From: an uncultured Chloroflexia bacterium
GTDB taxonomy: Bacteria; Chloroflexota; UBA6077; JACCZL01
Assembly (NCBI GenBank): GCA_963765765.1
Contig: CAVXYC010000018.1
Coordinates: 111,250 to 175,249 of the forward strand
Length of the DNA: 64,000 bases
Reading direction: 5' to 3'
Shown: piece after piece, positions 7,395 to 63,722 of the stretch
Position numbering within the stretch: position 1 is the stretch's first letter
Layout of the letters: the number at the start of each line of letters is the position of its first letter
The notes under the pieces: generated by a model
What the model saw: the letters and a program-made list of their open reading frames with translations, nothing else
Database searches by the model: none
Told to the model about the DNA's origin: nothing
Made by a program: the position numbers and the translations under genes

Positions 7395-8624
7395 ATGCAG
7401 ACGCGAACAAGACGCATGTCGCTCGGCGCCGCGGTAGGGCTGGACGGACTTAGCAAGGACACCCAGCGCGGTTTAGCCGTCGCATTTGCCACGAGCATCG
7501 CGGTGGTAATGGGTGTGCAGATGATCTACCCCGTCCTACCCGCGCTGATGTTTCAGCTCGGGGTGGACGACAAGGCGATTGGCCTGGTCGTGGCCGTGTA
7601 CACGGCGCCGGCAATCTTTCTGGCGCCGGTCTTCGGCATTCTGACGGACCGCCATGGTCGCCGACCCATCCTGCTCGGCGGCCTGCTGCTCTTCGGATTG
7701 GCCGGTGGCGCCATTGCTCTGGCGCCCACATTCGAATGGGTCGTAGCGTTGCGCTTCATTCAAGGCGTAGGTGCCACGGCGTTGAGCCCCCTCACGATTG
7801 TCCTACTGAGCGACCTCCTCGAGGACGAGAGCCAGGAGAGCTCAGCACAAGGTTTCAAAGTTGTTCTCGATCGCGTGAGCACGATCTTCGTACCGGTGGT
7901 CGCGGGGCTGCTGGCCGCCATCACATGGTCGCTCCCCTTCTATATGTTCGCGCTCACAATCCCTCTGGCGTGGCTCGCCTGGCGCTGGCTTCCTGAGACG
8001 CAAACGCAATCGAAAGTCACGATGGGCGCGTACCTGCGTGGCTACGGGCACATAGCTCGGCATCCACTCCTACTCATGGCGTTCTTCGCGGGATTCCTGC
8101 GCTTCTTTCTGGATTACGCCTTCTTTACGTATCTGCCGATCTATCTCGCGCTGAATCGAGGCACATCAACCGCTGTCATTGGCCTCATCTTTGGCTGCTT
8201 CGCCGTGGGCGCGATTATCACCGCGAGTCAGGCCGGACGCATCATCCGCCTGGGCGACCTCACGAAGCTGGTTTTAGTGGGATTCGTGCTGGACGGCGTA
8301 TCGCTGATTGCCGTGCCGTTTCTACCCTTTGAACCGCTGATCGGCCTGGCCATGCTCGTCTACGGACTGGGCAACGGCATGATCTCACCGCTCCAAAAGA
8401 GCTTGCTGACCCGCAATGCTCCGGTGGATCTGCGCGTAGGCGTGGTGTCACTGGACCGGTTGATTCAGCAGATCGGTAAAACCGCCGCTCCTGGCGTGGT
8501 CGGCATGGCCCTTGTGATCGGTGAGCTGGGAATGGTGTTCTGGATTCTAGGCGCACTCTCCATTATCAGCGTCGTGGCCGTAACACGAGTGATGAGTTCG
8601 TCGCGAGTAGCGAGTAGCGAGTAG
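7395..8624 (+). CDS. MFS transporter
   Basis: 409-aa ORF with about 12 hydrophobic segments and the loop 2-3 motif GILTDRHGRRP. Exact start uncertain. Confidence 0.8.
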   Translation: MQTRTRRMSLGAAVGLDGLSKDTQRGLAVAFATSIAVVMGVQMIYPVLPALMFQLGVDDKAIGLVVAVYTAPAIFLAPVFGILTDRHGRRPILLGGLLLFGLAGGAIALAPTFEWVVALRFIQGVGATALSPLTIVLLSDLLEDESQESSAQGFKVVLDRVSTIFVPVVAGLLAAITWSLPFYMFALTIPLAWLAWRWLPETQTQSKVTMGAYLRGYGHIARHPLLLMAFFAGFLRFFLDYAFFTYLPIYLALNRGTSTAVIGLIFGCFAVGAIITASQAGRIIRLGDLTKLVLVGFVLDGVSLIAVPFLPFEPLIGLAMLVYGLGNGMISPLQKSLLTRNAPVDLRVGVVSLDRLIQQIGKTAAPGVVGMALVIGELGMVFWILGALSIISVVAVTRVMSSSRVASSE

Positions 8625-8701
8625 CGAGTAGCGAGTACGGATCTTCCCGCTCGCGCTTCCCTGTTGTCACTGAGTACTCGCTACTGGTTACTCGCTACTC
8701 G
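8603..8701. repeat. heptamer-tandem hairpin H1: (gcgagta)x5, loop, (tactcgc)x4
   Basis: Read directly. The first arm overlaps the last codons and stop of the MFS gene. The element fills the gap between convergent genes, so it could also act as a bidirectional terminator. Confidence 0.85.
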
Positions 8702-20432: not shown

Positions 20433-20525
20433 CGGGTCTAGGGACGAGCGCTCTTGGGGAGCGTGCACGGAACACCGCTTTCTCGAGTGGGACAATCTCC
20501 GGTCGTACTCATAACCACCGAAGCC

Positions 20526-20613
20526 TTGTCATCCTGAGCTACAGCGAAGGATCTTCCCCACCGGAATCCGTCACACCCGCGGGGAAGATCTTCCCTGTGG
20601 CTCAGGATGACAA
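20526..20613. repeat. palindromic element S1 (gtcatcctgagc...gaaggatc family)
   Basis: ttgtcatcctgagctacagcgaaggatcttcccc ... ggggaagatcttccctgtggctcaggatgacaa. Same family as 33630-33728. Confidence 0.85.
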
Positions 20614-33548: not shown

Positions 33549-33629
33549 TCCGGCGCCGAGCGCTTTGAATACGGCGAGATCGTCGCTTTCTGGCGTGGCT
33601 AGCCGCTGGACACCACTCACAACCGCGGC

Positions 33630-33728
33630 GGCCTTGTCATCCTGAGCATTTAGCGAAGGATCTATCCCAACTGCCTCAAGGAATCCAGCCGGGAAGATCC
33701 TTCGCTAGTCGCTCAGGATGACAGGGCC
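33630..33728. repeat. palindromic element S2 (gtcatcctgagc...gaaggatc family)
   Basis: ggccttgtcatcctgagcatttagcgaaggatct ... agatccttcgctagtcgctcaggatgacagggcc. Confidence 0.85.
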
Positions 33729-52449: not shown

Positions 52450-53054
52450 GTACTCCACTAATTCGTCCTTTGCGTCCCTGCGGTCCCTTTAATCTCACCG
52501 GAAACTCTTCGCCGGCGGGATGGCGGGCAGGCGAGCTTTGGCCGCTTCTTCTCGGGGATCGTTACCTGGGCGGTCGCGTGACTCCAATGTCGGCAAGTCG
52601 CCCTCGCGTAGCGCTTCTATGTCGTCCACCAGGATGTTGATATTGCCGTCGCGGCACTGAAGGCGGCCGCGGACGATGACCATGGTCTCGCCACGAATGA
52701 TCGGTCGCTTGCGCTCATAGAGCGGCGGACGAATGATCGCGTTGGCCATACCCGTCTCGTCCTCCACCAGCAAGAACGTGAACCCCTGAGCGGTGCCCGG
52801 TCGCTGGCGGCACACCACCAGCCCGGCCACGCGCACCGGCCAGCCATCCGGTAACGCCTCCAGCTCCTCCGCTGAGACAATGTCGGACGGCAGCCGTGCC
52901 CGCATGAGCCCCAGAGGATGGAGTGACGGCGAGAGCCCCAGCGTGTGGTAATCCGCCACCATGCGCTCCCACGCGGTCATCTCTGGCCGCTCGATCATGT
53001 CCTGTTCCGTGCCGAAACCGAGAGGGAGGTTGCGGGGCGTGCCTGGGGAAGCTT

Positions 53055-53144
53055 CCTCGCCCCCTGGGAGAGGGTTGGGGTGAGAGAAGCTCGATTGCTT
53101 CTTTCGCGAGGCCCTCACCCCAGCCCTCTCCCAGGGGGCGAGGG
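53055..53144. repeat. GC-rich palindromic element P1 inside dnaE2 (translated in frame as ..LAPWERAGVRA...HPNPLPGGEE..)
   Basis: cctcgccccctgggagagggttggggtgag ... ccctcaccccagccctctcccagggggcgaggg. Confidence 0.9.
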
Positions 53145-53426
53145 AGCTCTTCCGACTTGGCTGCGGCTTCTTTTCCCGCCTCGATTGCTCCAGCAGCCCG
53201 TACTGCCACAACAGCTCACGACGGTTGAGCTGGAACGAGGGAAACGCGCCCAGCAGAATGAGGTTCTCCATGGCCGGGCGCTTGATGTCATACGCCGCGG
53301 TACGGTGAACGAAATCCTCGAGATCTCTGAACGGCCCGTTCCGCTCCCGTTCCGCTACGATCAACGCACTCATCTCTGAATTCAGGCTCCGCACCCGATC
53401 CAGCCCCAGGCGAACCGCGGACAACG

Positions 53427-53499
53427 TCGAGTGATGAGTCATGAGTGATGAGTCATGAGTACGGTCATCTTTACTCATCACCCATGACTCATCACTCGA
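53427..53499. repeat. heptamer-tandem hairpin H2 inside dnaE2 (read through in frame)
   Basis: tcgagtgatgagtcatgagtgatgagtcatgagta, loop, actcatcacccatgactcatcactcga. Translated as VSSDESWVMSKDDRTHDSSLMTHHS between conserved segments. Confidence 0.9.
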
Positions 53500-55195
53500 C
53501 ACCTGGTATGTCACCGTGCACTTCACGCCGCTCCGATTGATGTCCACCGGCAGCACGTGCACGCCGTGGCGGCGGCCGTCACCCACCAGCACGTGCGGCG
53601 CGTAGAAACCCATGGGCTGGTTGTTGAACAGGGCGCAGAGATACTCCGCTGGGTAGTGGTAGCGCAGCCAGGCGGATTGGAACGCCAGGATGGCAAAGGC
53701 CGCCGCGTGGCTTTTGGGGAAGCCAAATTCGGAGAAGCCCACCAGCTTGTCGAACACCTTGGTGGCGGTGGCTTCGTCCACATCGCGCTGTATGGCACCG
53801 TTCAGGAACTCCTCACGGAACGCCTGCATCGCTTCGGCAGAGCGCCGTCGGCTCATCGCTCTACGCAGGCCATCCGCTTGCCCTGAGCTGAAACCGGCCA
53901 ACTCCTCGGCCACCTGCATCACTTGGTCCTGGAAGAGCACCACGCCCAGGGTGTCGCGCAGCACCTCCTTTAGAGAAGGGTGGTCCACCTCGTAATCCGT
54001 GGCGCCCTGCCGCTGCCGCTCACGCTGGCGGACGTAGGGATTTACCGCGCCCCCCACGATGGGCCCGGGCCGAACGATGGCCACCTCGATAGCCAGGTCA
54101 TCCAGGTTGCGCGGCTGGGTGCGCGGCAGCATCTGAATCTGCGCACGACTCTCTATCTGAAACAGCCCCACGGTATCGCCCGCGCAGATCTGGTCATAGA
54201 TCTTGGGGTCGTCGTAATCGATCCGAGTGAGATCCTCCACTCGTCCCGTGTGTTGCCAGATGAGCTCCAGGCATTCCTCCACCAGTGAGAGCATGCCCAG
54301 CGCCAGGAAGTCCACCTTGATGAAACGCGCGTCATCGCACGAATCTTTGTCCCACTGGCAGATGTAGCGACCCTCCATGGCCGCCGGCTGCACGGGCACC
54401 AGCTCGATAATCGGGCGCGATGAGATGATCATCCCGCCCACGTGCTGACTCATGTGGCGCGGAAAGCCGGCAATCTGCCGGGCCAGCTCAATGAGGTGAC
54501 GCCAGATGGGTACGTGCACCAGGTCCTTGAGATCCGGCAGCCGCTCCATCTCCTGCTCCACGGTAGCCGCGGAGCCCCACTCGCTCAGCTTGGCCAGCTT
54601 GTCCAACGTGGGCGCCGGCAAGCCCAGCACCTTGCCCAGATCCCGCACGGCGCTGCGAATGTGATACGTGGCAAAGCTGCACACCAGCGCCGCGTGGTCC
54701 TTACCGTAGTGCTCGTACACCCGCAGGATGAGCTGCTCCCGAATGTCTCGCGCAAAGTCGAGATCGATATCCGGGACGGAGTGCATCGCATCGTTGAGAA
54801 AACGCCCTAGAAACAGATTGTTCTTGACCGGATCCACCTGAGAGAGGCCAATCAGGTAACAGACGATGGAGCTCACCGAAGAGCCGCGTCCCCGCCCGCA
54901 AGGCAGATTTGATTTGCCGCGCGCGGTATTGGATCCACCGCGGACGTCATTGGCCACTTCTCTGGCCATCTGCAGCAGATCGCGATACACGAGGAAAAAC
55001 CCGGACAGCCCGTGGCGCTCAATAAGCCCCAGCTCCTCACGCAGCCGCCCCACCGCGTCAACTCGTCCCGATGATCCTTCCGGATATTTCTCCTCCAGCG
55101 CCGCCCAGCAGTACTCACTCAACACCGCGTCTGCATCCGTGGCCATATCCTGCAGCGCGCCGATATTGGTGCCCGGAGCTTCATCAGAGGAGGCG

Positions 55196-55290
55196 CTCCC
55201 TCGCCCTTTGGGAGAGGGTTGGGGTGAGGGCCCTACGGTGGGGGATATCGAGCTTCCCTCACCCCAACCCTCTCCCAGGGGGCGAGGGAG
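55196..55290. repeat. GC-rich palindromic element P2 inside dnaE2
   Basis: ctccctcgccctttgggagagggttggggtgaggg ... ccctcaccccaaccctctcccagggggcgagggag. Confidence 0.9.
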
Positions 55291-55301
55291 ACGCCTCCCC
55301 A

Positions 55302-55422
55302 CCCCAGCCCTCCCCGTGCGCGGGGAGGGGGCCGGATTCTCCAGATTTCTCTGTCACAGCCCCCTCCCGGAGCAAATTTTCTCCATATCCGGCCCCCTCC
55401 CCGCGCACGGGGAGGGCTGGGG
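55302..55422. repeat. compound palindrome Q1 (36-bp perfect arms, each itself containing cctccccg-gcgc-ggggagg) inside dnaE2
   Basis: ccccagccctccccgtgcgcggggagggggccggat is the exact reverse complement of 55387-55422. The ORF break between 55302 and 55354 falls inside it. Confidence 0.9.
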
Positions 55423-56018
55423 TGGGGTCGTCCCCTCCGTCGCATCAGTCCCCTGAGTCCCAGAGGCCCCATACACCCCGCCCGGCCGCACATCCCTCCG
55501 AAACTCCGGAAACCGATACCCGAGATCCTCAGTCAGATCAAACTCGCTGCAACGCTCGGCAATCTCGCGGGTAGATTGAATGGCCTGAGGCAAATCGTGG
55601 AACCGTGCCGCCATCTCCGCCGGGGTCTGCAGAAAGAACTCACTGTTTGGTCGACGGAGCTGATGGGAGCCTTCCAATGTAGAGCGATGCTTGATGGCCA
55701 CCATGGCGTCCTGCAGCCGGTGTCGGGCGCGCTCGTGATAGTGCACGTTGCCCGTGGCCACGATGTCCACATTCAGTCGCTCAGCCAGCTCCACCAGGCG
55801 CAGCACGCGACGCTCATCGCCCTTCACCAGATGACGCTGCAGCTCCAGATACAGCGCGTGCCCGCCAAACAGATCGCGCAGCCAGCGACCGGCCGCTTCC
55901 GCCTCCGTCAGCCGCCCTTCATCGATAAGCTGGCACAGTAGCCCGTGTCGACAGCCAGACAGCGCGATCAATCCGCGCGTGCGCCCCTCCAGCGCCGCCG
56001 CCGGCAGACACGGCGCCT

Positions 56019-56105
56019 TCGCCCCTGGGAGAGGGTTGGTGAGGGCTCTTTCCACCGAACGAGGCTGATTGCTCTTCCCTCACGCCAACCCGCTCCCAGG
56101 GCGAG
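56019..56105. repeat. GC-rich palindromic element P3 inside dnaE2 (arms differ by a 1-nt indel; the frame changes here)
   Basis: tcgcccctgggagagggttggtgaggg ... ccctcacgccaacccgctcccagggcgag. Confidence 0.85.
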
Positions 56106-56428
56106 CATGGAGCCTGACACATTGCGACGCTCCGGGTCGCACGCATCCGTCAGCAGCCGACACAGGTTGGCGTAGCCCTCGGGATTCTCGGCCAGCAGCG
56201 TCAGGTGGCAGCGTCGACCGGATACGTCAAGCGTCAGCTCCGCCCCGGTGATCGGCTGGATCTCCACAATCTTTGCGTACTGGGCAAAGGCCATGGCGCC
56301 GGCAAGGTTGTCATGGTCGGTAATCGCCAGCGCCCGGTAGTCGAATTCGCAGGCGCTATTCATCAGCTCCTCGATCTGCGACGCGCCGTCCAGAAACGAG
56401 TACGCCGTGTGGAGATGCAGCTCTACAT

Positions 56429-56524
56429 AGTGATGAGTAGTGAGTGATGAGTGATGAGTCACCATCGGCAAGGATCTCTACTCATTACTCATGACTCATT
56501 ACTCATGACCCATTACTCATCACT
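56429..56524. repeat. heptamer-tandem hairpin H3 spanning the imuB stop / dnaE2 start junction
   Basis: agtgatgagtagtgagtgatgagtgatgagtcac, loop, tactcattactcatgactcattactcatgacccattactcatcact. One arm encodes the THHSSLTTHH at the dnaE2 N-terminus. Confidence 0.9.
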
Positions 56525-57091
56525 GCGTCTTTAGCGCTGGGCGTACCACTGGCCGTCCACCAGGTCTTTGTAGATCTCCAGGCGCTTTCCGCCTTCCAGC
56601 AGCACGCCAAAATACAGCCGGCTCACCGGCCGATTTCGCCACCACTCGTCATCAATGCGCCAGCGCTCCAGCACTTCAGCCACTCGGCGCCGGCTTCGCT
56701 GCCAGGTCACCGTTATCGGCGCGCCATCCTGATGCTCCACGCGAATTGCGTTCGGCTCGTTCAGAAATTGCAGTCGACCAGTGCCCAGCGACGCTCGGGA
56801 AAGCGTGACCACGGCTCCACCTCCATGATTCGATACAGTTGTCCGGCCGGGGCATCGCCAAAGCGCATGCGTAGCTGGCGCGCGGCCTCGGCCACACCCG
56901 TAAGCTGCCGGCGACGACCGCTCCACAGCTCCTCCTGCATCACGCTGGCGCCCTGCTTCAGCACCAGCGTTACTCCTAGCTCTGCCACCGCGCCCTCCGG
57001 ATGCGCATTGCCCAGCCGCCCACGCAGATGCTTCAGCGCCGTAGCAGCGCTGGCCACCGGCTCGCGCAGCGTGAAGGTGCGTTCCCAGGAC

Positions 57092-57189
57092 GAGTGAGCA
57101 GAGGTGAGAGGTCGGAGGTCAGAGGTCAGGAATCGTCTCCGATCACCTCGCTCATCACTGACCTCTGACCTCTGACCTCTGACCTCTCG
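57092..57189. repeat. heptamer-tandem hairpin H4 inside imuB
   Basis: gagtgagcagaggtgagaggtcggaggtcagaggtcagg, loop, (tgacctc-type units)x4. Read through as EVRGQRSEVSDERGDRRRFLTSDLRPLTS. Confidence 0.9.
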
Positions 57190-57702
57190 TCCTTCGCCCC
57201 ACGCCCGCAATGTGATCTGCTCCACAGAACGGCCTCGCGTCACCGGCAGACTGAAGGCGCGCACCAGCACACGCTCTAGCCCGGCCAGCAGCCCTTGAGA
57301 GCTCGCCACGGCGGATGGAAAGCGCAGCCGCGCCTCGGCCTTCAGCGCGCGAGCTCGGGGCTGGAACGGACGATCGTCCTGCCCGCACGCCAGCCTCCAG
57401 GCACGGCCGCCGGCCAGCGCCAAACTGTGCCTGTACCGGCCCCAGCGGCAACCCTGAGAGGGCGCCCAGCGTATGGAGCCCCTGCTGCTGAAAGCTGCGC
57501 GCAAGGTCCGGCGTGACCGGCAGCAGCACCGCCGGCAACGGCGCCAGAAACGACTTCTCCGCCCTCGCGGGCACAATGCTCACCTGCCCCGGGCTGTGCC
57601 TGCCGCGCCGCCGCCTCCGCCACAAACTTCCCCCGTGCCACCCCCAGCCGCGCCCGGAACATCGAGGGCACGGAGCGGAGGATGATCTGGAGATCGCTTT
57701 GC

Positions 57703-57786
57703 GAAGTGAAGAGTGAAGAGTGAAGAGTGAAAGACGGCAGTGTGGGTGGCTCATTCTCCACTCTTAACGCTTCACTCTTCACTTCC
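57703..57786. repeat. heptamer-tandem hairpin H5 inside imuB
   Basis: gaagtgaagagtgaagagtgaagagtgaaag, loop, tccactcttaacgcttcactcttcacttcc. Read through as KEVKSEALRVENEPPTLPSFTLHSSLFTS. Span as drawn is 84 nt. Confidence 0.9.
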
Positions 57787-58173
57787 TTCCCCAGCGCCTC
57801 CACATCACAGAACACCACCCCCAGCCCGGCCGGCTCCACCGGGCCAATGACCTTCTCCAGGTCATCCAGCACCTGCTCAAACCGCTGGGCGTAGAGCACC
57901 GGATCAGGCGGCACCATCACCAGCTCACGACACAGCGCCAGCGCCTCCCGAGCCGGCATGCCCGGGCGCACACCCACGGCCGCGGCCTCAGGAGAGCACT
58001 CCAGAATCTCGGGCCGTTGCCCCACGCCGGAGGTGAGCGCCAACGGCGCGCCGTCCTGCGCGGCATTACGCATCGTCTCCACACGCAGCGCAAAATGCGG
58101 CAGCAGGAGGCAGCCGATCATTTGCCTGGCCATCACTCGTCCCCTCCAGCCGGGCCCTGGGGCCGCGGGCGTC

Positions 58174-58686
58174 CTACCCGTCCCCGGCTTTCCGGTGGGA
58201 CGGGCGTCCCTGCCCGTCGCGGCCTGGAGGGCCGCCCCTCGAACACAGCGAGCGGTGACGGGGAGTACTGGAGGCGGGCTCGACGCCCGCGACGGGCAGG
58301 GACGCCCATCCCACCGGTGGAAAAGGAACGCTCCCCGGCCCTGCGGTACAGCCGTCCATCACTCGTCTCCCCGGAGCGTTCGTCCCGGCCGCCATGGACC
58401 CGCGCGAAGACCGCACCCGCACGCCGGCGGCAGAACGCCGCCCCGCGCTGAGCTGGGTGTCCACCGCGGCGTACAGTCCGCTGGCAGAAAGCCCCAGCGC
58501 CAGGCCGCGCATCACCGCGCCGGCCATCGTGATGCCGTCATCCGCCGCGATGAGGCTGAGCGCCAGGCCCAATGCCAGCGCCATCGGAGCCGCCCACCGC
58601 GCGCTCAGCCCCGTACCCTTGGCCACCTCCACCAGCCCAATGATCACCGGTACCACCAGCACACCGAAGAATTCCGTTGTATCCAC
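58174..58686 (-). CDS. phage holin, A118/Hol118-like (3' part of the ORF runs through a repeat and is probably not genuine)
   Basis: MDTTEFFGVLVVPVIIGLVEVAKGTGLSARWAAPMALALGLALSLIAADDG..GLALGLSASGLYAAV matches the Hol118 layout (TM, K-T-x-L, W, TM, DG, TM, GL). The C-terminal 100 aa overlap element U1. Confidence 0.6.
   Translation of the reverse strand: MDTTEFFGVLVVPVIIGLVEVAKGTGLSARWAAPMALALGLALSLIAADDGITMAGAVMRGLALGLSASGLYAAVDTQLSAGRRSAAGVRVRSSRGSMAAGTNAPGRRVMDGCTAGPGSVPFPPVGWASLPVAGVEPASSTPRHRSLCSRGGPPGRDGQGRPSHRKAGDG
58192..58317. repeat. palindromic element U1 (gggacgggcgtccctgcccgtc family)
   Basis: ccggtgggacgggcgtccctgcccgtcgcgg ... ccgcgacgggcagggacgcccatcccaccgg. A degenerate half copy lies at 58161-58187. 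Confidence 0.85.
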
Positions 58687-58703
58687 AACCGTCCCCCTGA
58701 CGG

Positions 58704-58802
58704 GAGTTAAGAGTGAAAAGTTAAGAGTGAAATTGAGATTGTCGAAATCAAATCAGCTTCCCCAGTGCCATTCTTAACTCTTAACTTTTTCACTCTTAAC
58801 TC
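58704..58802. repeat. heptamer-tandem hairpin H6 (intergenic, tail-like gene to holin)
   Basis: gagttaagagtgaaaagttaagagtgaaattgagatt, loop, tcttaactcttaactttttcactcttaactc. Confidence 0.9.
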
Positions 58803-58809
58803 AACCTCC

Positions 58810-60630
58810 TCACGCCTCCAACAACCTCAAGCTGCCTCTCAACTGCGTTCCCATCCGTTGGCTCATCTTGGCCCCCTTCTCCTCGTAGTCCAGCAGCCAC
58901 ACATTCCGACTCACCCCGTCCAGATCCACATACGTCAGCGGCCCCGCCTGACCGGCAATGCCCCACAACGCCGTGCTGAGCTGCGCGCTTGTCTGCGAGC
59001 TATTGCTCCCATCCAGCAGCACCATCGGCATCTGCCCGCTCCCCTCGATGAGGCAATCGAACTCCCACACGCGCTTGACGCCCGGCGCCGGCCGACAGCG
59101 CATCTCGAGCGAGAAGAACCGCAGCGGCGTGGCCCCGCCAGCAGGGCCCGTCAGGATCACTCGGAACGCGATGAGCTTGCCCGCCACCGCCGCGCCAAAC
59201 GTGAACGTCGCCGTGGTGCTACTCGTCGTGCTGTTCGTGCCCAGGCTCGTCCACGCGCCGGTGTCCTCCAGGCGGTACTGCACCTGCACGCTCTGACCCG
59301 CCAGCAGCGCCGCGTGGTTGATCGTGACGCTCCGAAACACTTTCGTCACGCCCGGCAGCCGCGCATCGATCAGCCCCGTCTCCAGCGTCGCCGCCGCCTG
59401 ATGGAGGTCGCTCCGAACCCTGAGCATGAACCAGTTGGTCGTACTGAGCTGGGCAATCACGTAGAGATCGCCACCAAACCACGCCAGGCTCTGCGCGCGA
59501 CCATTGCCGGCCATCGCGGCCACGGCCACCGGCTCGCTCCATCCGACTGATCCGCCTGAGGCGGAGGCCGCTCCGTCGTAGCGCTTCAGGCCCACGCCGG
59601 CCCCGTCCGAGAACGCCATCCAGAAGCCCCCGCGACCGCTTGCCGTGGCGCCCAGCGCTCCGCCCGCGTACGGGATCGTCAGTGGATGCGGGATGGGCTC
59701 AACGTCGCCATTCCGCCAGCGGTACACCACCGGGTAGGCCGATGAGCCGCGCTGGCCCACCAGGTAGCTGGCATCTCCCAGCACGCTCCCACCCAGCAGG
59801 CTCACGCCATCGATCGTCGTCGTAAACGCCCATTGCTCGGAGGCCGCGTTGTCCTTCAGGGTGTACACGCCCGTCCGCGCGCCGCTGCCCATCTGTGTCC
59901 CGCAGAACACCGCCGTTGTCCCAATCACCTGCGGCTGCACGCGACAGCTCGGCTCGTTGAGCTGGTAGCGCAAGGCGGAGAGCGTTGCCCCGTCCGTGTA
60001 ATAGACTCGGCACCCGTCCGGCGCCTCACCCACCAGGTACAGGTAGGCCACCGAGCCCCGATAGAACACGCCCATGCTGTAACACGCGGTGACCGGCGGC
60101 GGCAGCGTCACAAAGACGTCGGTGTAGGTCGCTCCATCCCATCTGGCAATGCTGCCGTTGCCCGTTTTGCCAACGTAGAGCTTGCCCTGATACTCGGCAA
60201 AGCTCGCCGCTCGACCGCCCGTGGCCAGCGTAAACGGCGCCCCCAGCGACGCCCCATCCCAGCTCACCACCGCGCCGCCGTTGGCCCCGTGGTAGTACTT
60301 GCCGAGTGCCGCGATGGATGGTCCGGGCGAGAGGTCATTGACGCCGGCGTTCACCTGGGCGGCATGCGGCCCCTGCCGAGCCGCGCCGGGCTCGGTCCAT
60401 GGATCCAGGCCCGGACCAAACCGGTATCGCCCGGGCTCGTCCTCATCGTGCCGGGTGAAGCCCTCACCGCCGCTCCAATCGTCGATGAGCACAGCCATTT
60501 CGTTCCGCAGGTCCCCGTAGCCGCGATCCCCCGAAGACGTCTTCGGCGCAAACGGGTCGGCCAACGTCCGCCGATAGCTCTGCACATCCAGCAGCAGCCC
60601 CTGCCCGGCCAGCATCACGTGATAAGTCAT
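58810..60630 (-). CDS. phage tail/adsorption-like protein: N-terminal beta-propeller-like repeats plus a C-terminal phage-type domain
   Basis: Start set at MTYHVMLAGQGLLLD. About seven repeats of the type G.LYVG..G.I.RWDG. The C-terminal about 200 aa resemble phage tail/tubular proteins (my recollection, not a search). The upstream 18 codons of the track ORF lie in repeat H7. Confidence 0.5.
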   Translation of the reverse strand: MTYHVMLAGQGLLLDVQSYRRTLADPFAPKTSSGDRGYGDLRNEMAVLIDDWSGGEGFTRHDEDEPGRYRFGPGLDPWTEPGAARQGPHAAQVNAGVNDLSPGPSIAALGKYYHGANGGAVVSWDGASLGAPFTLATGGRAASFAEYQGKLYVGKTGNGSIARWDGATYTDVFVTLPPPVTACYSMGVFYRGSVAYLYLVGEAPDGCRVYYTDGATLSALRYQLNEPSCRVQPQVIGTTAVFCGTQMGSGARTGVYTLKDNAASEQWAFTTTIDGVSLLGGSVLGDASYLVGQRGSSAYPVVYRWRNGDVEPIPHPLTIPYAGGALGATASGRGGFWMAFSDGAGVGLKRYDGAASASGGSVGWSEPVAVAAMAGNGRAQSLAWFGGDLYVIAQLSTTNWFMLRVRSDLHQAAATLETGLIDARLPGVTKVFRSVTINHAALLAGQSVQVQYRLEDTGAWTSLGTNSTTSSTTATFTFGAAVAGKLIAFRVILTGPAGGATPLRFFSLEMRCRPAPGVKRVWEFDCLIEGSGQMPMVLLDGSNSSQTSAQLSTALWGIAGQAGPLTYVDLDGVSRNVWLLDYEEKGAKMSQRMGTQLRGSLRLLEA

Positions 60631-60635
60631 AGCGA

Positions 60636-60697
60636 GAGTGATGAGTAATGAGTCATGGTGACGAGTAGATGAGTGATGAGTCATAAGTAATGAGTGG
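60636..60697. repeat. tandem heptamer array H7 (gtgatga/gtaatga/gtcatga units, one orientation only)
   Basis: gtgatgagtaatgagtcatggtgacgagtagatgagtgatgagtcataagtaatgagtgggg. Spans the stop of the hydrolase gene and the 5' end of the tail-like ORF. Confidence 0.8.
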
Positions 60698-61517
60698 GGA
60701 GGGATGCGTCCGCGTCCCGCTGCTGACTACTCATTCCTTTCTGGGCATTTCCGAAGGCCGCCATCAGGCCGGGGTCGCGCAGGAGACTGAACTGCCAGAA
60801 CGCCTCGTCCGGGCTATCCAGGATGAAGTACACCGCGCCTTCCAGGCCGGGCGTCTCCGCCAGATCGCGGCATACGCGATCGAACGGCACGCGGTTGAAC
60901 TCGGTCACCAGCAGCGGCCGCTGGATGCCCGCCATCTCCAGCATCTCTCGGCAGCGTCGGTGCAGCCCCCAGCCATCCGCGTAGGCGTGCACGTCCACCA
61001 CGTCATAGAGCGGAATCACCGGCTCCAGCTCACGCCAGTACTGGATGGCGCGCTCGCTGTTCTCGCCCGTCCAGCCGCTCCACGGAGCCGGCAGATGCAG
61101 GCGATCCTGCGGTCGCAGCGCGCGATAGACCTCCGCAAACGCGCTGAGCCAGGTGCGATGACGAGCGTAATCGTCGTGCCCGTTCTCCGCCGCGCCCGGC
61201 CAGTTCATCTCATTGGCCGGGATCACCTCACCGGTGCTGGACTCAAAGAACACCGTGGCGCGGCGAGCACATTCCACCGCCCAGGCAGCCGGGTCGCGTT
61301 GCGGAATATCGCGCGCGTAGCAGCGCAGCAGTGGCACGCTGCCGCGCGCTCGAAGTCGGGCCGCCAGCGTGCTGTGCTGGCCCAGCCCCTCCCACTCCTG
61401 TATGTCATGCGCCAGAAACAGCGTGTGCCGCGGCCGCAGCCGCGCCAACGCCCCCAGCGTCGGCCGATCATACGCCCCGGCCACATTAGGGGTTTGAATA
61501 CCTAAGAGATGCTGCAT
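60681..61517 (-). CDS. TIM-barrel glycoside-hydrolase-like protein (possible phage lysin or depolymerase)
   Basis: Clan GH-A-like pair of acidic motifs: ..IPANEMNWPG.. and ..RPLLVTEFNRV.. . Start set at MQHLLGIQ. Weak, motif-level call. Confidence 0.45.
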   Translation of the reverse strand: MQHLLGIQTPNVAGAYDRPTLGALARLRPRHTLFLAHDIQEWEGLGQHSTLAARLRARGSVPLLRCYARDIPQRDPAAWAVECARRATVFFESSTGEVIPANEMNWPGAAENGHDDYARHRTWLSAFAEVYRALRPQDRLHLPAPWSGWTGENSERAIQYWRELEPVIPLYDVVDVHAYADGWGLHRRCREMLEMAGIQRPLLVTEFNRVPFDRVCRDLAETPGLEGAVYFILDSPDEAFWQFSLLRDPGLMAAFGNAQKGMSSQQRDADASLPTHYL

Positions 61518-61532
61518 AAATCCCTTCCAGAC

Positions 61533-61628
61533 GGCCCCCTCCCCGCGCACGGGGAGGCATGGGTGGGGTCGTCCCTCGCTCGCTTATAGCTAGGAGACCC
61601 CCTCAGTCCCCCCATGCGCGGGGGGAAG
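61533..61628. repeat. palindromic element Q2 (same family as the right half of Q1)
   Basis: ggccccctccccgcgcacggggagg..gggtggggtcgtccc..cctcagtcccc..tccccccatgcgcgggggga. Shares strings with 55391-55470. Confidence 0.8.
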
Positions 61629-61642
61629 GCGGTTATTGAGCG

Positions 61643-62531
61643 CTAGGCGTTATTGATTCCTTTGATTCGGGCCAGGGCGGAGTCGCGCAGGATGGCGATG
61701 CTCACGTACCAGCGGATGCGCACGCGGGTGGCGTCCTTGGTCTGGAGCTGGCCCACGTCCAGCACCTCCAGGCCGCCGTTCTGCAGACCCACCACGCCGT
61801 CACCTTCATCGAAGTGGATGGCGTAGATGCTGGAGGTGGCGTTGTCCGTGCCCTGCGTCTCCGCATCAGGCTGGAAATCGCTAATCTCCACGGGCACGCC
61901 GTCGTACAGCATGACCTGTCGACCAAACGCGTTCTCACCGCGCTCCACGTAGTGCGCGCTGGCCTGCAGCAAGCTCTTCAGCTTGCGACGCGTCCGTCGA
62001 CTCATCAACAGCAGCGTGGGCTTGCCGCCCAGAATCAGGTCCATCACCTGATCCAGCAGCGCCAGCGTCAGCGGCCCGCCGTTGGTCGCCACGCTGATCG
62101 TCTGACCCGCGGCCACCTGCTTGCGAATGCCGTCGAACGCGTTCGCATCCACGCCGGTATCGCCGGTGATGAACGTGTCCTCAAACTTGCGGGCCACGCT
62201 CTTGGCCTTGAGCTGAGTCTGGATAGCCTGCTGATTCTGGAGACTGGAGCGCGTGCGCTGGATGAAGTTATCCACGTCCGCGTCGCCACCCAGAATCGCC
62301 AGACTGGCCGTCTTGTTGGAGAACGTGCTGGTGGCCTCCGTCCAGGTGCCATCCACCGCGTAGAACGCCGCGCCACCCAGCACATTCTCCTGGTTGTATT
62401 TGTAAAACTGGACACAATGTGCTCGTCCTGACGTGGACCGACCGAAACGAGGCGGCCTCGAAGGGGGTCTGAGAGGCCTTGGGACAGCCTCAACGCTCTG
62501 GCAAATCACTCCGACTCCTCACACTCTTCAT
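61643..62531 (-). pseudogene. phage major capsid protein (HK97-fold type), 5' end degraded (in-frame TGA and a frame change in the first 40 codons or so)
   Basis: ..ILGGDADVDNFIQ.., ..KPTLLLMSRRTRRKLKSLL.., ..SSIYAIHFDEGDGVVGLQNGGLEVLDVGQL..RVRIRWYVSIAI are typical capsid-family strings. ATG at 62529-62531 gives MKSVRSRSDLPER, then TGA, then the main ORF 61643..62509 in another frame. Confidence 0.6.
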
Positions 62532-62536
62532 CACTT

Positions 62537-62554
62537 ATAGAACTTATGTTCTAT
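62537..62554. promoter_or_regulatory. candidate LexA (Cheo-type) box ATAGAAC-TTAT-GTTCTAT
   Basis: Perfect 7-bp inverted arms around GAAC-N4-GTTC in an AT-rich patch, 6 nt upstream (minus strand) of the first ATG of the capsid-like gene. Confidence 0.55.
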
Positions 62555-62587
62555 TTCTAGAGTAGTCCTTAGTGGTCCCTTGATGCG

Positions 62588-62872
62588 TCATGAGGCGCAC
62601 CAATCCGGGCATTCTGGCGACGGAAATAACCCCTGTCGCAGATCGGAAGTTATGGGTAGTGAGGCGGGTGGCTGGCGCCGCGACGCTAGCGCCGGTTCTC
62701 GAGGAAGCTCGATCAAGCCGCGACGAAGAGCGACCGCGAGGGCCGCTTGCGCCGTGTGGCAACCCAGTCGCTTCATTGCGGAGCGGACGTGCGTCCGAAC
62801 CGTGTGCTCGCTCAGGACGAGCTGGTCAGCGATCGCCCGTCGCGACTTGCCAAGAGCCAGGAGGCTGAGCAC
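62588..62872 (-). CDS. LuxR/GerE-type helix-turn-helix domain protein (no canonical start upstream of the HTH; possibly the C-terminus of the preceding gene)
   Basis: (LRPRERE)VLSLLALGKSRRAIADQLVLSEHTVRTHVRSAMKRLG. The frame is open upstream to about 62990, but ATG/GTG/TTG are absent before the GTG at 62872, which lies inside the domain. Confidence 0.7.
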   Translation of the reverse strand: MLSLLALGKSRRAIADQLVLSEHTVRTHVRSAMKRLGCHTAQAALAVALRRGLIELPREPALASRRQPPASLPITSDLRQGLFPSPECPDWCAS

Positions 62873-62939
62873 TTCTCGCTCACGTGGCCGCAGGTACGGC
62901 TCGTTGTTACCGGCTCGACCCAGAATGATTCCAGGTTCC

Positions 62940-63722
62940 TCAGGGCAACTCGAGGACGGGCTGGAAGTGCTTTTGCTCGCACCACGAGCTGCCTAAGAGC
63001 TGAGAGGTCCGCTCGTGCAGAATCTCTTCGTGAGCCCCTGCTGGCATGATGCAGAAAAGCCTGCGTGAGCCGCGACAAAACTGGACAGCCCAGACTCGAT
63101 TGACATTCAGTCGTTCACGGATCTCCGCAATCCGACGGCGAGCTTGCACCTCGGCCGATGCCCTCCGGTCGACATGCTGATACACCACGAGACTTTGGCC
63201 ACGCTGCAGGAACGGCAGTAGCTCATCGAAGAACGCGTATTTAGGCCCGCGCGCGCGGAACGGCCCCGTGGAACCGACCTGGAGCCCGTTATCGGGATCG
63301 ACGAACACAAGCTCACACCCCTGAGTGGCCGCCATAGCGTCCTGGACCCACGTGTGCCTATAAATCCGGCGCTCGCCAGGCACCATATCCCGAAATGAGA
63401 GTTGTTCGGCGAAGTATCGAGTCGAGCTCGGGAAGAGATTAAGCTCGTGGATCGCAGAGACACGACGCTCTCCTCGCGTAATCAGTGTCGCGAGTCGCTC
63501 GTACAAGTCAGGGTCGCAACTCCTGAACCGAGCATTTAAGAGATTCTCACCGAGCAGGTAGGAAACATGCTTCCCGTCATCATTGTGGGACTCGTCGGGC
63601 ACCAAGTACCAAACGATCCCCAAATCGAGAAAGGGCTCCGCTCGCGGCTCGACCCCGCAGAGCCACCGAAGAAGTCCGAACTTTCCGAAGTCGCCCACGT
63701 CACCCGCGTATCGGTCCTGCAC
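62940..63722 (-). CDS. uncharacterised conserved-looking protein (260 aa)
   Basis: MQDRYAGDVGDFGKFGLLRWL.., ..CELVFVDPDNGL.., ..QSLVVYQHVDR.. . The motif order recalls RlmJ-like Rossmann proteins (HAGNxxDxxKH ... DPPY), but the DPPY equivalent reads DPDN. No family assigned. Confidence 0.55.
   Translation of the reverse strand: MQDRYAGDVGDFGKFGLLRWLCGVEPRAEPFLDLGIVWYLVPDESHNDDGKHVSYLLGENLLNARFRSCDPDLYERLATLITRGERRVSAIHELNLFPSSTRYFAEQLSFRDMVPGERRIYRHTWVQDAMAATQGCELVFVDPDNGLQVGSTGPFRARGPKYAFFDELLPFLQRGQSLVVYQHVDRRASAEVQARRRIAEIRERLNVNRVWAVQFCRGSRRLFCIMPAGAHEEILHERTSQLLGSSWCEQKHFQPVLELP

Follow-up and report, generated by a model that had tools for sequence, protein, structure and literature searches.

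Palindromic repeats within an imuB-dnaE2 operon

We analysed a 64,000-nt stretch of DNA (hereafter the window) from an uncultured Chloroflexia bacterium (assembly GCA_963765765.1, contig CAVXYC010000018.1, positions 111,250 to 175,249), in which dnaE2, the gene for an error-prone DNA polymerase III (Pol III) alpha subunit of the ImuC type, carries several copies of a palindromic element. The minus-strand gene encodes PHP, DNA_pol3_alpha, finger, HHH_6 and OB domains (Pfam); their order and the adjoining imuB are those of DnaE2/ImuC proteins. Among 8000 homologues, those with names are annotated as "error-prone DNA polymerase" and come from Chloroflexota metagenome-assembled genomes (MAGs), and Pol III alpha subunits are the nearest solved relatives of the product. 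As in known imuA-imuB-dnaE2 mutagenesis cassettes, dnaE2 is directly preceded, on its own strand, by imuB and a DUF6504 open reading frame (ORF) downstream of imuB. Unlike in those cassettes, no imuA was recognised, a phage-type holin gene stands immediately upstream, and both imuB and dnaE2 are interrupted in the assembly.

An earlier note on this DNA had reported one palindromic element at three places in dnaE2 and nowhere else in the 64 kb. Our scan bears this out: the 21-nt arm GGGAGAGGGTTGGGGTGAGGG, allowing up to three mismatches, has five matches in the window, all at the three reported places (A1, A2 and A3 in Table 1), and dinucleotide shuffles gave 0 matches. The claim that A1 is read in frame in a linker of the 935-aa ORF likewise agrees with the translation and the domain positions. 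A2 is also translated in frame (…PRPLGEGWGEG…PSPQPSPKGRG…), at the N-terminus of the same ORF; used as a peptide query for host protein families, this translation returned no candidates. A3 is degenerate, with one substitution, a 1-nt indel and a 2-nt indel between its arms rather than the one single-base indel that had been described. The inventory of repeats was incomplete, since five more hairpins in the operon (B, C1, C2, D and E) had gone unreported.

Four of these additional hairpins belong to a class with arms made of three to five tandem heptamers (units GAGTGAT/GAGTCAT, GAGTAGC, GAGGTCA and GAAGAGT, with GGTCTCA and GTTCCGG in relatives). C1 falls in the HHH_6 region, where the Pfam match extends over 118 aa against a 90-position profile. 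The dnaE2 start codon (ATG 56465-56463) lies inside C2, the 3' arm of which is translated as MVTHHSSLTTHHY, and D is a 31-aa insertion relative to the ImuB proteins of two related loci (L123 and L124). Across most of the window, heptamer hairpins are intergenic, and within dnaE2 and imuB they stand in frame, in other Chloroflexota as well as here; the remaining hairpins outside the cassette are intergenic too. We found no description of this heptamer-repeat class in the literature, and an Rfam scan of 52-62 kb returned no known RNA family, only sub-threshold look-alikes of miRNA precursors of the kind that generic hairpins produce. The operon hairpins have predicted RNA folds of -44 to -121 kcal/mol (z -5.8 to -14.5, A3 being weaker), as computed with tools that model hairpins only.

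Table 1 Features of the imuB-dnaE2 locus, related hairpins in the window, and in-frame occurrences of the A-type arm in other genomes (RNA folds are predictions)
Feature	Position	Strand	Properties	Evidence or location
dnaE2 (error-prone Pol III alpha, ImuC-type)	52495..56465	-		Pfam domains, tblastn, homologue names
dnaE2 pieces in the assembly	55968-56471, 55354-56055, 52495-55302		three ORFs, the last being the 935-aa ORF	
imuB (Y-family IMS fold)	56764..58133	-		Pfam IMS match, tblastn; directly upstream of dnaE2
DUF6504 small ORF	56531..56812	-	E 0.003, below curated cut-off	Pfam DUF6504; overlaps imuB 3' end
GGGAGAGGGTTGGGGTGAGGG matches	53066-53086(+), 53112-53132(-), 55210-55230(+), 55256-55276(-), 56077-56097(-)			
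A1, inverted TM pair	53050..53148		35-nt arms, 94% complementary; fold -83.9 kcal/mol, z -8.7	repeat finder; HhH-OB linker (site iv)
A2, inverted TM pair	55196..55290		35-nt arms, 94% complementary; fold -88.4 kcal/mol, z -10.9	repeat finder; PHP-to-palm linker (site ii)
A3, decayed inverted TM pair	56012..56111		degenerate copy; fold only -57.2 kcal/mol, z -3.4	repeat finder, arm scan, tblastn; PHP-domain linker (site i)
B, second TM-type palindrome	55297..55427		arms perfect 41/41, 49-nt loop; fold -121.5 kcal/mol, z -14.5	repeat finder; 6 nt from A2
In-frame TGA, context UGA-C	55354..55356	-	codon 242 of continuous translation	loop of B
C1, GAGTGAT/GAGTCAT heptamers	53426..53500		in frame; -53 kcal/mol, z -9.3	repeat finder; HHH_6 region (site iii)
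C2, GAGTGAT/GAGTCAT heptamers	56429..56524		-46.9 kcal/mol	spans DUF6504 ORF-dnaE2 spacer and dnaE2 start
D, GAGGTCA heptamers	57088..57199		in frame; -71.1 kcal/mol	imuB
E, GAAGAGT heptamers	57703..57785		in frame; -44.5 kcal/mol	imuB IMS domain
B2, degenerate second copy of B-type TM palindrome	61531..61633			repeat finder; between phage-like genes
Heptamer hairpins outside imuB-dnaE2	8604-8701, 58698-58790, 60630-60702			window
TM in mfd	L004:3474-3532		in frame; full inverted pair	other genome
TM in priA	L061:2407-2427		in frame	other genome
TM in cheA	L064:4656-4676		in frame	other genome
TM in vgrG	L074:4193-4213		in frame	other genome
TM in radical SAM gene	L045:1161-1181		in frame	other genome
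TM in MmeI-type gene	L012:2010-2030		in frame	other genome
TM in Mo-hydroxylase gene	L033:1522-1542		in frame	other genome

Identity of the element

The earlier note was right that the element is real but missed that it belongs to a known family: judged by its sequence, each A arm is a BoxC/PIT/TM intrastrand-triplex motif. The TM unit begins with a C-block CCCTCGCCCC, continues beyond a short loop with a G-block GGGAGAGGG and, 2-3 nt further on, ends with another G-block GGGGTGAGGG, and arms of the form CCCTCGCCCCC-T-GGGAGAGGG-TT-GGGGTGAGGG are found at 55256-55288(-), 55198-55230(+) and 53112-53144(-). C-block, complementary G-block and mirror G-block, each of ~9-10 nt and parted by loops of 1-6 nt, are thus all present. 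The A arms (CCCTCGCCCCCTGGGAGAGGGTTGGGGTGAGGG) match the Escherichia coli TMECO type 'A mm' almost base for base (compare E. coli no. 5, CCCTCGCCCCCTTGGGGAGAGGGTTAGGGTGAGGGG), and the likeness extends to the 'mismatch' variant CCCTCGCCCC, the loop sizes, the arrangement in inverted pairs, the multiple copies and the lack, as far as known, of a transposase. What differs is the host phylum, Chloroflexota, and the second loop, which reads TTG rather than TTA or CCG. On one strand, the C-block and the first G-block would form a hairpin, with the third block placed in its groove as a purine-motif triplex, and two opposed TM units would yield a palindrome of roughly 100 nt. Palindrome B, with the architecture CCCCTCCCC-GCGCAC-GGGGAGGG-CT-GGGGTGGGG, is a second variant of this design. 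Its 3' arm contains a GGAGG (55313-55309) six nt upstream of the GTG (55302) that opens the 935-aa ORF, and TM motifs therefore inherently carry a string that resembles a Shine-Dalgarno sequence plus start codon.

The sequence is widely conserved across distant bacteria. At least 120 stretches, belonging to Pseudomonadota, Cyanobacteria, Planctomycetota, Chloroflexota, Myxococcota and further phyla, contain the exact 21-mer, which there usually follows CCCTCTCCC or CCCTCGCCC and a 3-5-nt loop. Most E. coli genomes carry it, at a median of 4 places each; the 64 kb of genome covered here hold three A pairs and two B pairs. A full-text literature search with the arm sequence found no papers. The exact arm is also present in at least 120 IMG/VR viral contigs (L162-L281).

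In E. coli K-12, TM motifs have been described in 23 copies, always intergenic, with five inverted pairs, and the motif is found in over 260 genomes of bacteria and associated with local genomic instability (Holder et al. 2015, PMC4666352). The E. coli motif forms a stable triplex in vitro, as seen by circular dichroism and nuclear magnetic resonance, with none detected in vivo; the study reported no association with phages, plasmids or transposons, and no transposase related to the family is known (Holder et al. 2015, PMC4666352). Whereas the E. coli copies are intergenic, which is a reported property and no structural criterion, A1, A2, A3 and B place three pairs and a variant pair in one coding sequence, two of them translated in frame. 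It is this intragenic, translated setting that is unusual, the family itself being already known. To our knowledge, BoxC/PIT/TM elements are among the most conserved bacterial repeats, and we know of no function or spreading mechanism for them.

Among TM matches in other genomes, 23 of 129 lie in long open frames, and seven of the ten that we tested proved, on the evidence of Pfam, to be real genes (Table 1). These host genes are multi-domain, belong to Proteobacteria and other phyla, and contradict the 'always intergenic' picture drawn from E. coli K-12.

Insertion sites, host linkers and selection

A record of an insertion comes from a relative on a JGI contig (L001), which carries the same dnaE2 at 84% DNA identity to the window. 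Its A1 site is empty: 9 nt stand there against 135 in the window, a clean gain of 126 nt (42 codons) at about 53038-53163, of which A1 is part. On comparing this filled and empty site, we saw neither a target-site duplication nor a common target motif. C1 is present and alignable in the relative. Its A2 linker holds a TM pair with identical arms and an unrelated 25-nt loop (window 55231-55255 vs L001:17-41), and this pattern indicates that the pair was replaced, underwent gene conversion or was inserted independently in this linker. The perfect arms of B suggest that it is the youngest element, and the decay of A3 suggests that it is the oldest. An origin of the loops by copying from the flanks (template switching) was considered and set aside: a 10-mer shared between the A1 loop and its flank was judged not significant (null 10/300, 15 elements tested), and no such sharing was seen in the other elements.

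All elements in dnaE2 fall at four linkers, and it is at these linkers that DnaE2 proteins vary in length. Most of 120 homologues keep the four distances between conserved anchors tight (medians 37, 57, 59 and 40 aa), a minority have long inserts, and the window is expanded at all four. In a predicted structure of weak overall quality (mean predicted local distance difference test, pLDDT, of 63.6), the segments encoded by the inserts score below 50 and have no secondary structure; the segment encoded by A1 is contained in a part of the 935-aa ORF, residues 715-779, that scores below 50 in this weak model. A codon-usage frame tracker registered the inserts as islands without coding signal.

Other DnaE2 proteins of Chloroflexota have inserts of a similar kind. 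One DnaE2 homologue carries a translated TM (…SRWERAGVRA…) at site iv (P0007) and another (…GPHPNPLPEGEG…) in the PHP domain (P0031). An intact homologue of 1477 aa (P0032) has TM-like copies within a 320-aa insert at site i, three of them with at most three mismatches and two near-exact, and a C-type peptide (…HDSQLTTHH…) at site iv. Heptamer hairpins lie in frame at sites iii and iv of DnaE2 in two further loci, L123 (12679-12785) and L126 (5488-5592). The Chloroflexota MAG GCA_040960095.1 has two imuB-dnaE2 loci (L123 and L124), the DnaE2 proteins of which bear long low-complexity inserts at the same linkers; selA is near both loci and selB near one.

Between the window and L001, dnaE2 has a ratio of nonsynonymous to synonymous substitution (dN/dS) of 0.12 (dS 0.70, 881 codons), and the gene has therefore been under purifying selection while carrying its elements. 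Of the seven elements inside genes, five (A1, A2, C1, D and E, with B and A3 as the exceptions) are in frame and contain no stop (P ~0.02-0.05 under a 1/3 null), a proportion that fits a selection filter.

The earlier note had left the choice between tolerated and targeted insertion. Tolerance accords with the empty A1 site, the five in-frame and stop-free elements, the low dN/dS and the confinement to four length-variable linkers, and, as a general rule, large proteins seem to tolerate such repeats in their linkers, because TM motifs stand in frame in varied genes and dnaE2 or imuB occurred in 0 of 240 TM-bearing loci (2 Mb) of other genomes and viral contigs. For targeting we found no direct support, and we consider it rather improbable. 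On this view imuB-dnaE2 would be favoured by the repeats or by their copying process, for instance through linker sequence or structure or through replication or repair state, so that clustering would reflect a bias of insertion and not of survival. Clustering in the window is indeed strong, with four of the five TM pairs in dnaE2, which takes up 6% of the window (P 7e-5), and 6 of 19 hairpins in the imuB-dnaE2 cassette (P 0.003). In several divergent Chloroflexota DnaE2 genes, the same four sites bear TM or heptamer hairpins, the flanks being almost free of them, and the A2 arms shared with L001 around unrelated loops suggest repeated hits or replacement in one linker. Targeting is opposed, however, by the A1 empty site, which shows neither a duplication nor a shared target motif, by the same motif in frame in mfd, priA, cheA, vgrG and other unrelated genes of other phyla, and by the 0 of 240 loci; the counts outside the window are small (four hairpins inside vs two outside), and survival bias alone predicts restriction to length-variable linkers. 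The pile-up in Chloroflexota dnaE2 and imuB is a local excess, for which tolerance may or may not be the full explanation.

Reading-frame breaks, competing explanations and surroundings

Aligned by tblastn with full-length intact homologues, dnaE2 runs in frame -3 over 56429-56058 and in frame -2 over 56016-55495 and 55140-52504. The change from -3 to -2 falls in A3, and both frames are open over 55971-56079. The ORFs 55354-56055 and 52495-55302 are one frame, parted only by TGA 55354-55356, the sole internal stop in the frame from 56079 to 52495. The earlier note had placed a frame break at the second and at the third copy; the latter stands as a frameshift inside A3, but at the former there is no frame change, only a TGA that belongs to B, so that dnaE2 as assembled contains one frameshift and one stop instead of two frame changes. 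A selenocysteine reading of this TGA was dropped for want of evidence of a selenocysteine insertion sequence, the codon lying in junk loop sequence. Two intact ImuB relatives reveal two frameshifts in imuB (-3 for 58118-57603, -1 for 57577-57419 and -2 for 57414-56764), one at ~57590 in a CCCGGGG run and one at ~57416 in a GCGC repeat, neither of them in a hairpin. The codon-usage frame tracker could not separate frameshifts from gene boundaries in the operon.

In relatives, the imuB and dnaE2 orthologues are each a single ORF. As assembled, both genes of the window have the form of pseudogenes, and the loss of function proposed in the earlier note is plausible, although the lesions differ from those that it had in mind: a TGA in B, a frameshift in A3 and two frameshifts in imuB. 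Taken at face value, the assembled sequence favours a recent, real inactivation of the operon, since four disabling lesions are gathered there while many long ORFs elsewhere are intact.

That the genome instead has imuB and dnaE2 intact, every element being in frame, and that consensus or assembly errors in a metagenome-assembled contig account for the TGA and the three frameshifts, is unlikely but deserves real weight. Assemblers and polishers make mistakes in repeated, strongly structured elements, which contain two of the four lesions, and one imuB shift is in the CCCGGGG run; the dN/dS of 0.12 implies that dnaE2 was functional until very recently, and the DnaE2 protein was found on one contig only. 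Speaking for real lesions, A3 is unique in sequence and has decayed by substitutions and indels, which makes mis-assembly among copies unlikely there. The second imuB shift resembles a 2-nt change in a non-homopolymer context, a TGA substitution is an atypical assembly error, and uninterrupted ORFs of 350-620 aa are numerous in the rest of the window. An independent check of A3 and B through metagenome relatives of the N-terminal part gave a best match of only 64% aa identity.

The elements might also be functional, with mRNA hairpins or DNA triplexes throttling or switching expression of the mutagenic polymerase, and with the TGA overcome by leaky read-through at UGA-C, by re-initiation at the GGAGG-N6-GTG (55302) or by ribosome hopping from the CUG before the stop to a CUG 12 nt downstream. 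This is very improbable. The predicted stability of the hairpins, the burial of the dnaE2 start codon in C2, the Shine-Dalgarno-like GGAGG before the GTG and the stop context are all compatible with it, and PIT elements block DNA polymerase in vitro according to earlier PIT work by Maher's group as cited in Holder et al. 2015 (PMC4666352). Yet the A3 frameshift has no rescue, no slippery heptamer for -1 frameshifting being seen by reading the sequence of the 55971-56079 overlap, and the two imuB frameshifts point to decay. The elements are dispensable, because A1 is missing in a close relative and most homologues are without inserts. The CUG...CUG match is expected by chance, and PIT elements, as relayed via Holder et al. 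2015 (PMC4666352), have neither promoter nor terminator activity in E. coli.

Overall, we hold it most probable, with moderate confidence, that insertions were tolerated at permissive linkers subject to a reading-frame filter, and that the operon was inactivated recently thereafter. Non-autonomous TM repeats and heptamer hairpins would have landed repeatedly in the imuB-dnaE2 operon and persisted only where they did no harm, that is, in frame and stop-free at the four length-variable linkers of DnaE2 and in two loops of ImuB, where their translation would yield filler that is probably disordered. In a polymerase that is non-essential and seldom used, selection would filter such insertions rather than exclude them. 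Inactivation would have come later, when B brought its TGA, A3 gained frame-shifting indels and imuB acquired two ordinary frameshifts.

Several points weigh against this reading. The clustering exceeds what simple tolerance predicts and, with several lineages hit, leaves room for a real insertion preference; enrichment was judged from 64 kb of genome only. The identical arms and different loop at A2 fit no single old orthologous insertion. The disorder of the inserts comes from a structure prediction that is weak overall, and each of the four lesions, above all those within or beside repeats, could stem from an error of consensus or assembly.

A bolder proposal, which we hold to be quite improbable, is that imuB-dnaE2 of Chloroflexota is a preferred, recurrent sink for structure-forming repeats that purifying selection keeps in frame, and that the elements might in addition act as brakes or on-off switches on the polymerase. 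Switching could then proceed through mRNA hairpins, through the start codon buried in a hairpin, or through stops and indels arising within elements, and a sink of this kind would represent selfish DNA inside coding sequence, similar to that of Rickettsia, in a free-living phylum.

In their behaviour, the elements resemble the Rickettsia palindromic elements (RPEs), which are likewise short palindromes inserted in frame in genes, translated at positions compatible with the protein fold, and interpreted as selfish DNA filtered by selection. RPEs are, however, ~150 bp long and AT-rich and encode a conserved peptide, so that the elements of the window are set apart by composition and length and are not counted as RPEs; RPEs also occur in many unrelated genes, in contrast to the accumulation of several families in a single operon here. 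MITEs and REP/BIME elements share with the present ones the small size, the non-autonomous nature, the hairpin formation, the multiple copies and occasional intragenic in-frame fusions or disruptions. They differ in that the A1 empty site has no target-site duplication, no partner insertion sequence or RAYT is known, nor does the window show one, and their simple terminal inverted repeats contrast with arms composed of a hairpin plus a third block. Membership among the MITEs was rejected on the first of these grounds and on the lack of a known related transposase.

TM motifs translated within real proteins extend the phenomenon of palindromic repeats in coding sequence beyond Rickettsia, and pairs of filled and empty sites provide dated insertion events for the study of TM movement. 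Such insertions also split gene calls and inflate protein lengths in MAGs. Four TM-type pairs and four heptamer hairpins stacked in the operon of an error-prone polymerase are a curiosity in themselves.

The DUF6504 ORF is not a lesion, because relatives too have a separate ORF after imuB in another frame (L123, 5124-5417; L124, 9281-9469). It overlaps the 3' end of imuB in the window and in L123 and is detached in L124, and this conserved arrangement could be that of a gene in its own right or of a programmed frameshift. A phage-like block (58430-63722) directly adjoins imuB on its upstream side and has the same strand; it encodes a major head protein (PHROG 212; Pfam SU10_MCP), a holin (PHROG 1299) and two proteins of 624 and 289 aa, both without matches. 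We rejected the idea that imuB-dnaE2 is prophage cargo, as related IMG/VR contigs have the capsid, holin and 624-aa protein in common with the block, and not imuB or dnaE2. From 54 to 62 kb there is a shift in both G+C content (0.64-0.67) and GC skew (-0.11 to -0.16). Elsewhere in the window, another hairpin family (…TTGTCATCCTGAGC…GAAGGATCT…) has intergenic copies at 20507-20613 and 33615-33728, 13.1 kb apart, and two related CCGACATCCTGTCGGCC-type hairpins (1981-2098 and 2714-2841) occupy an 880-bp stretch without a convincing ORF.

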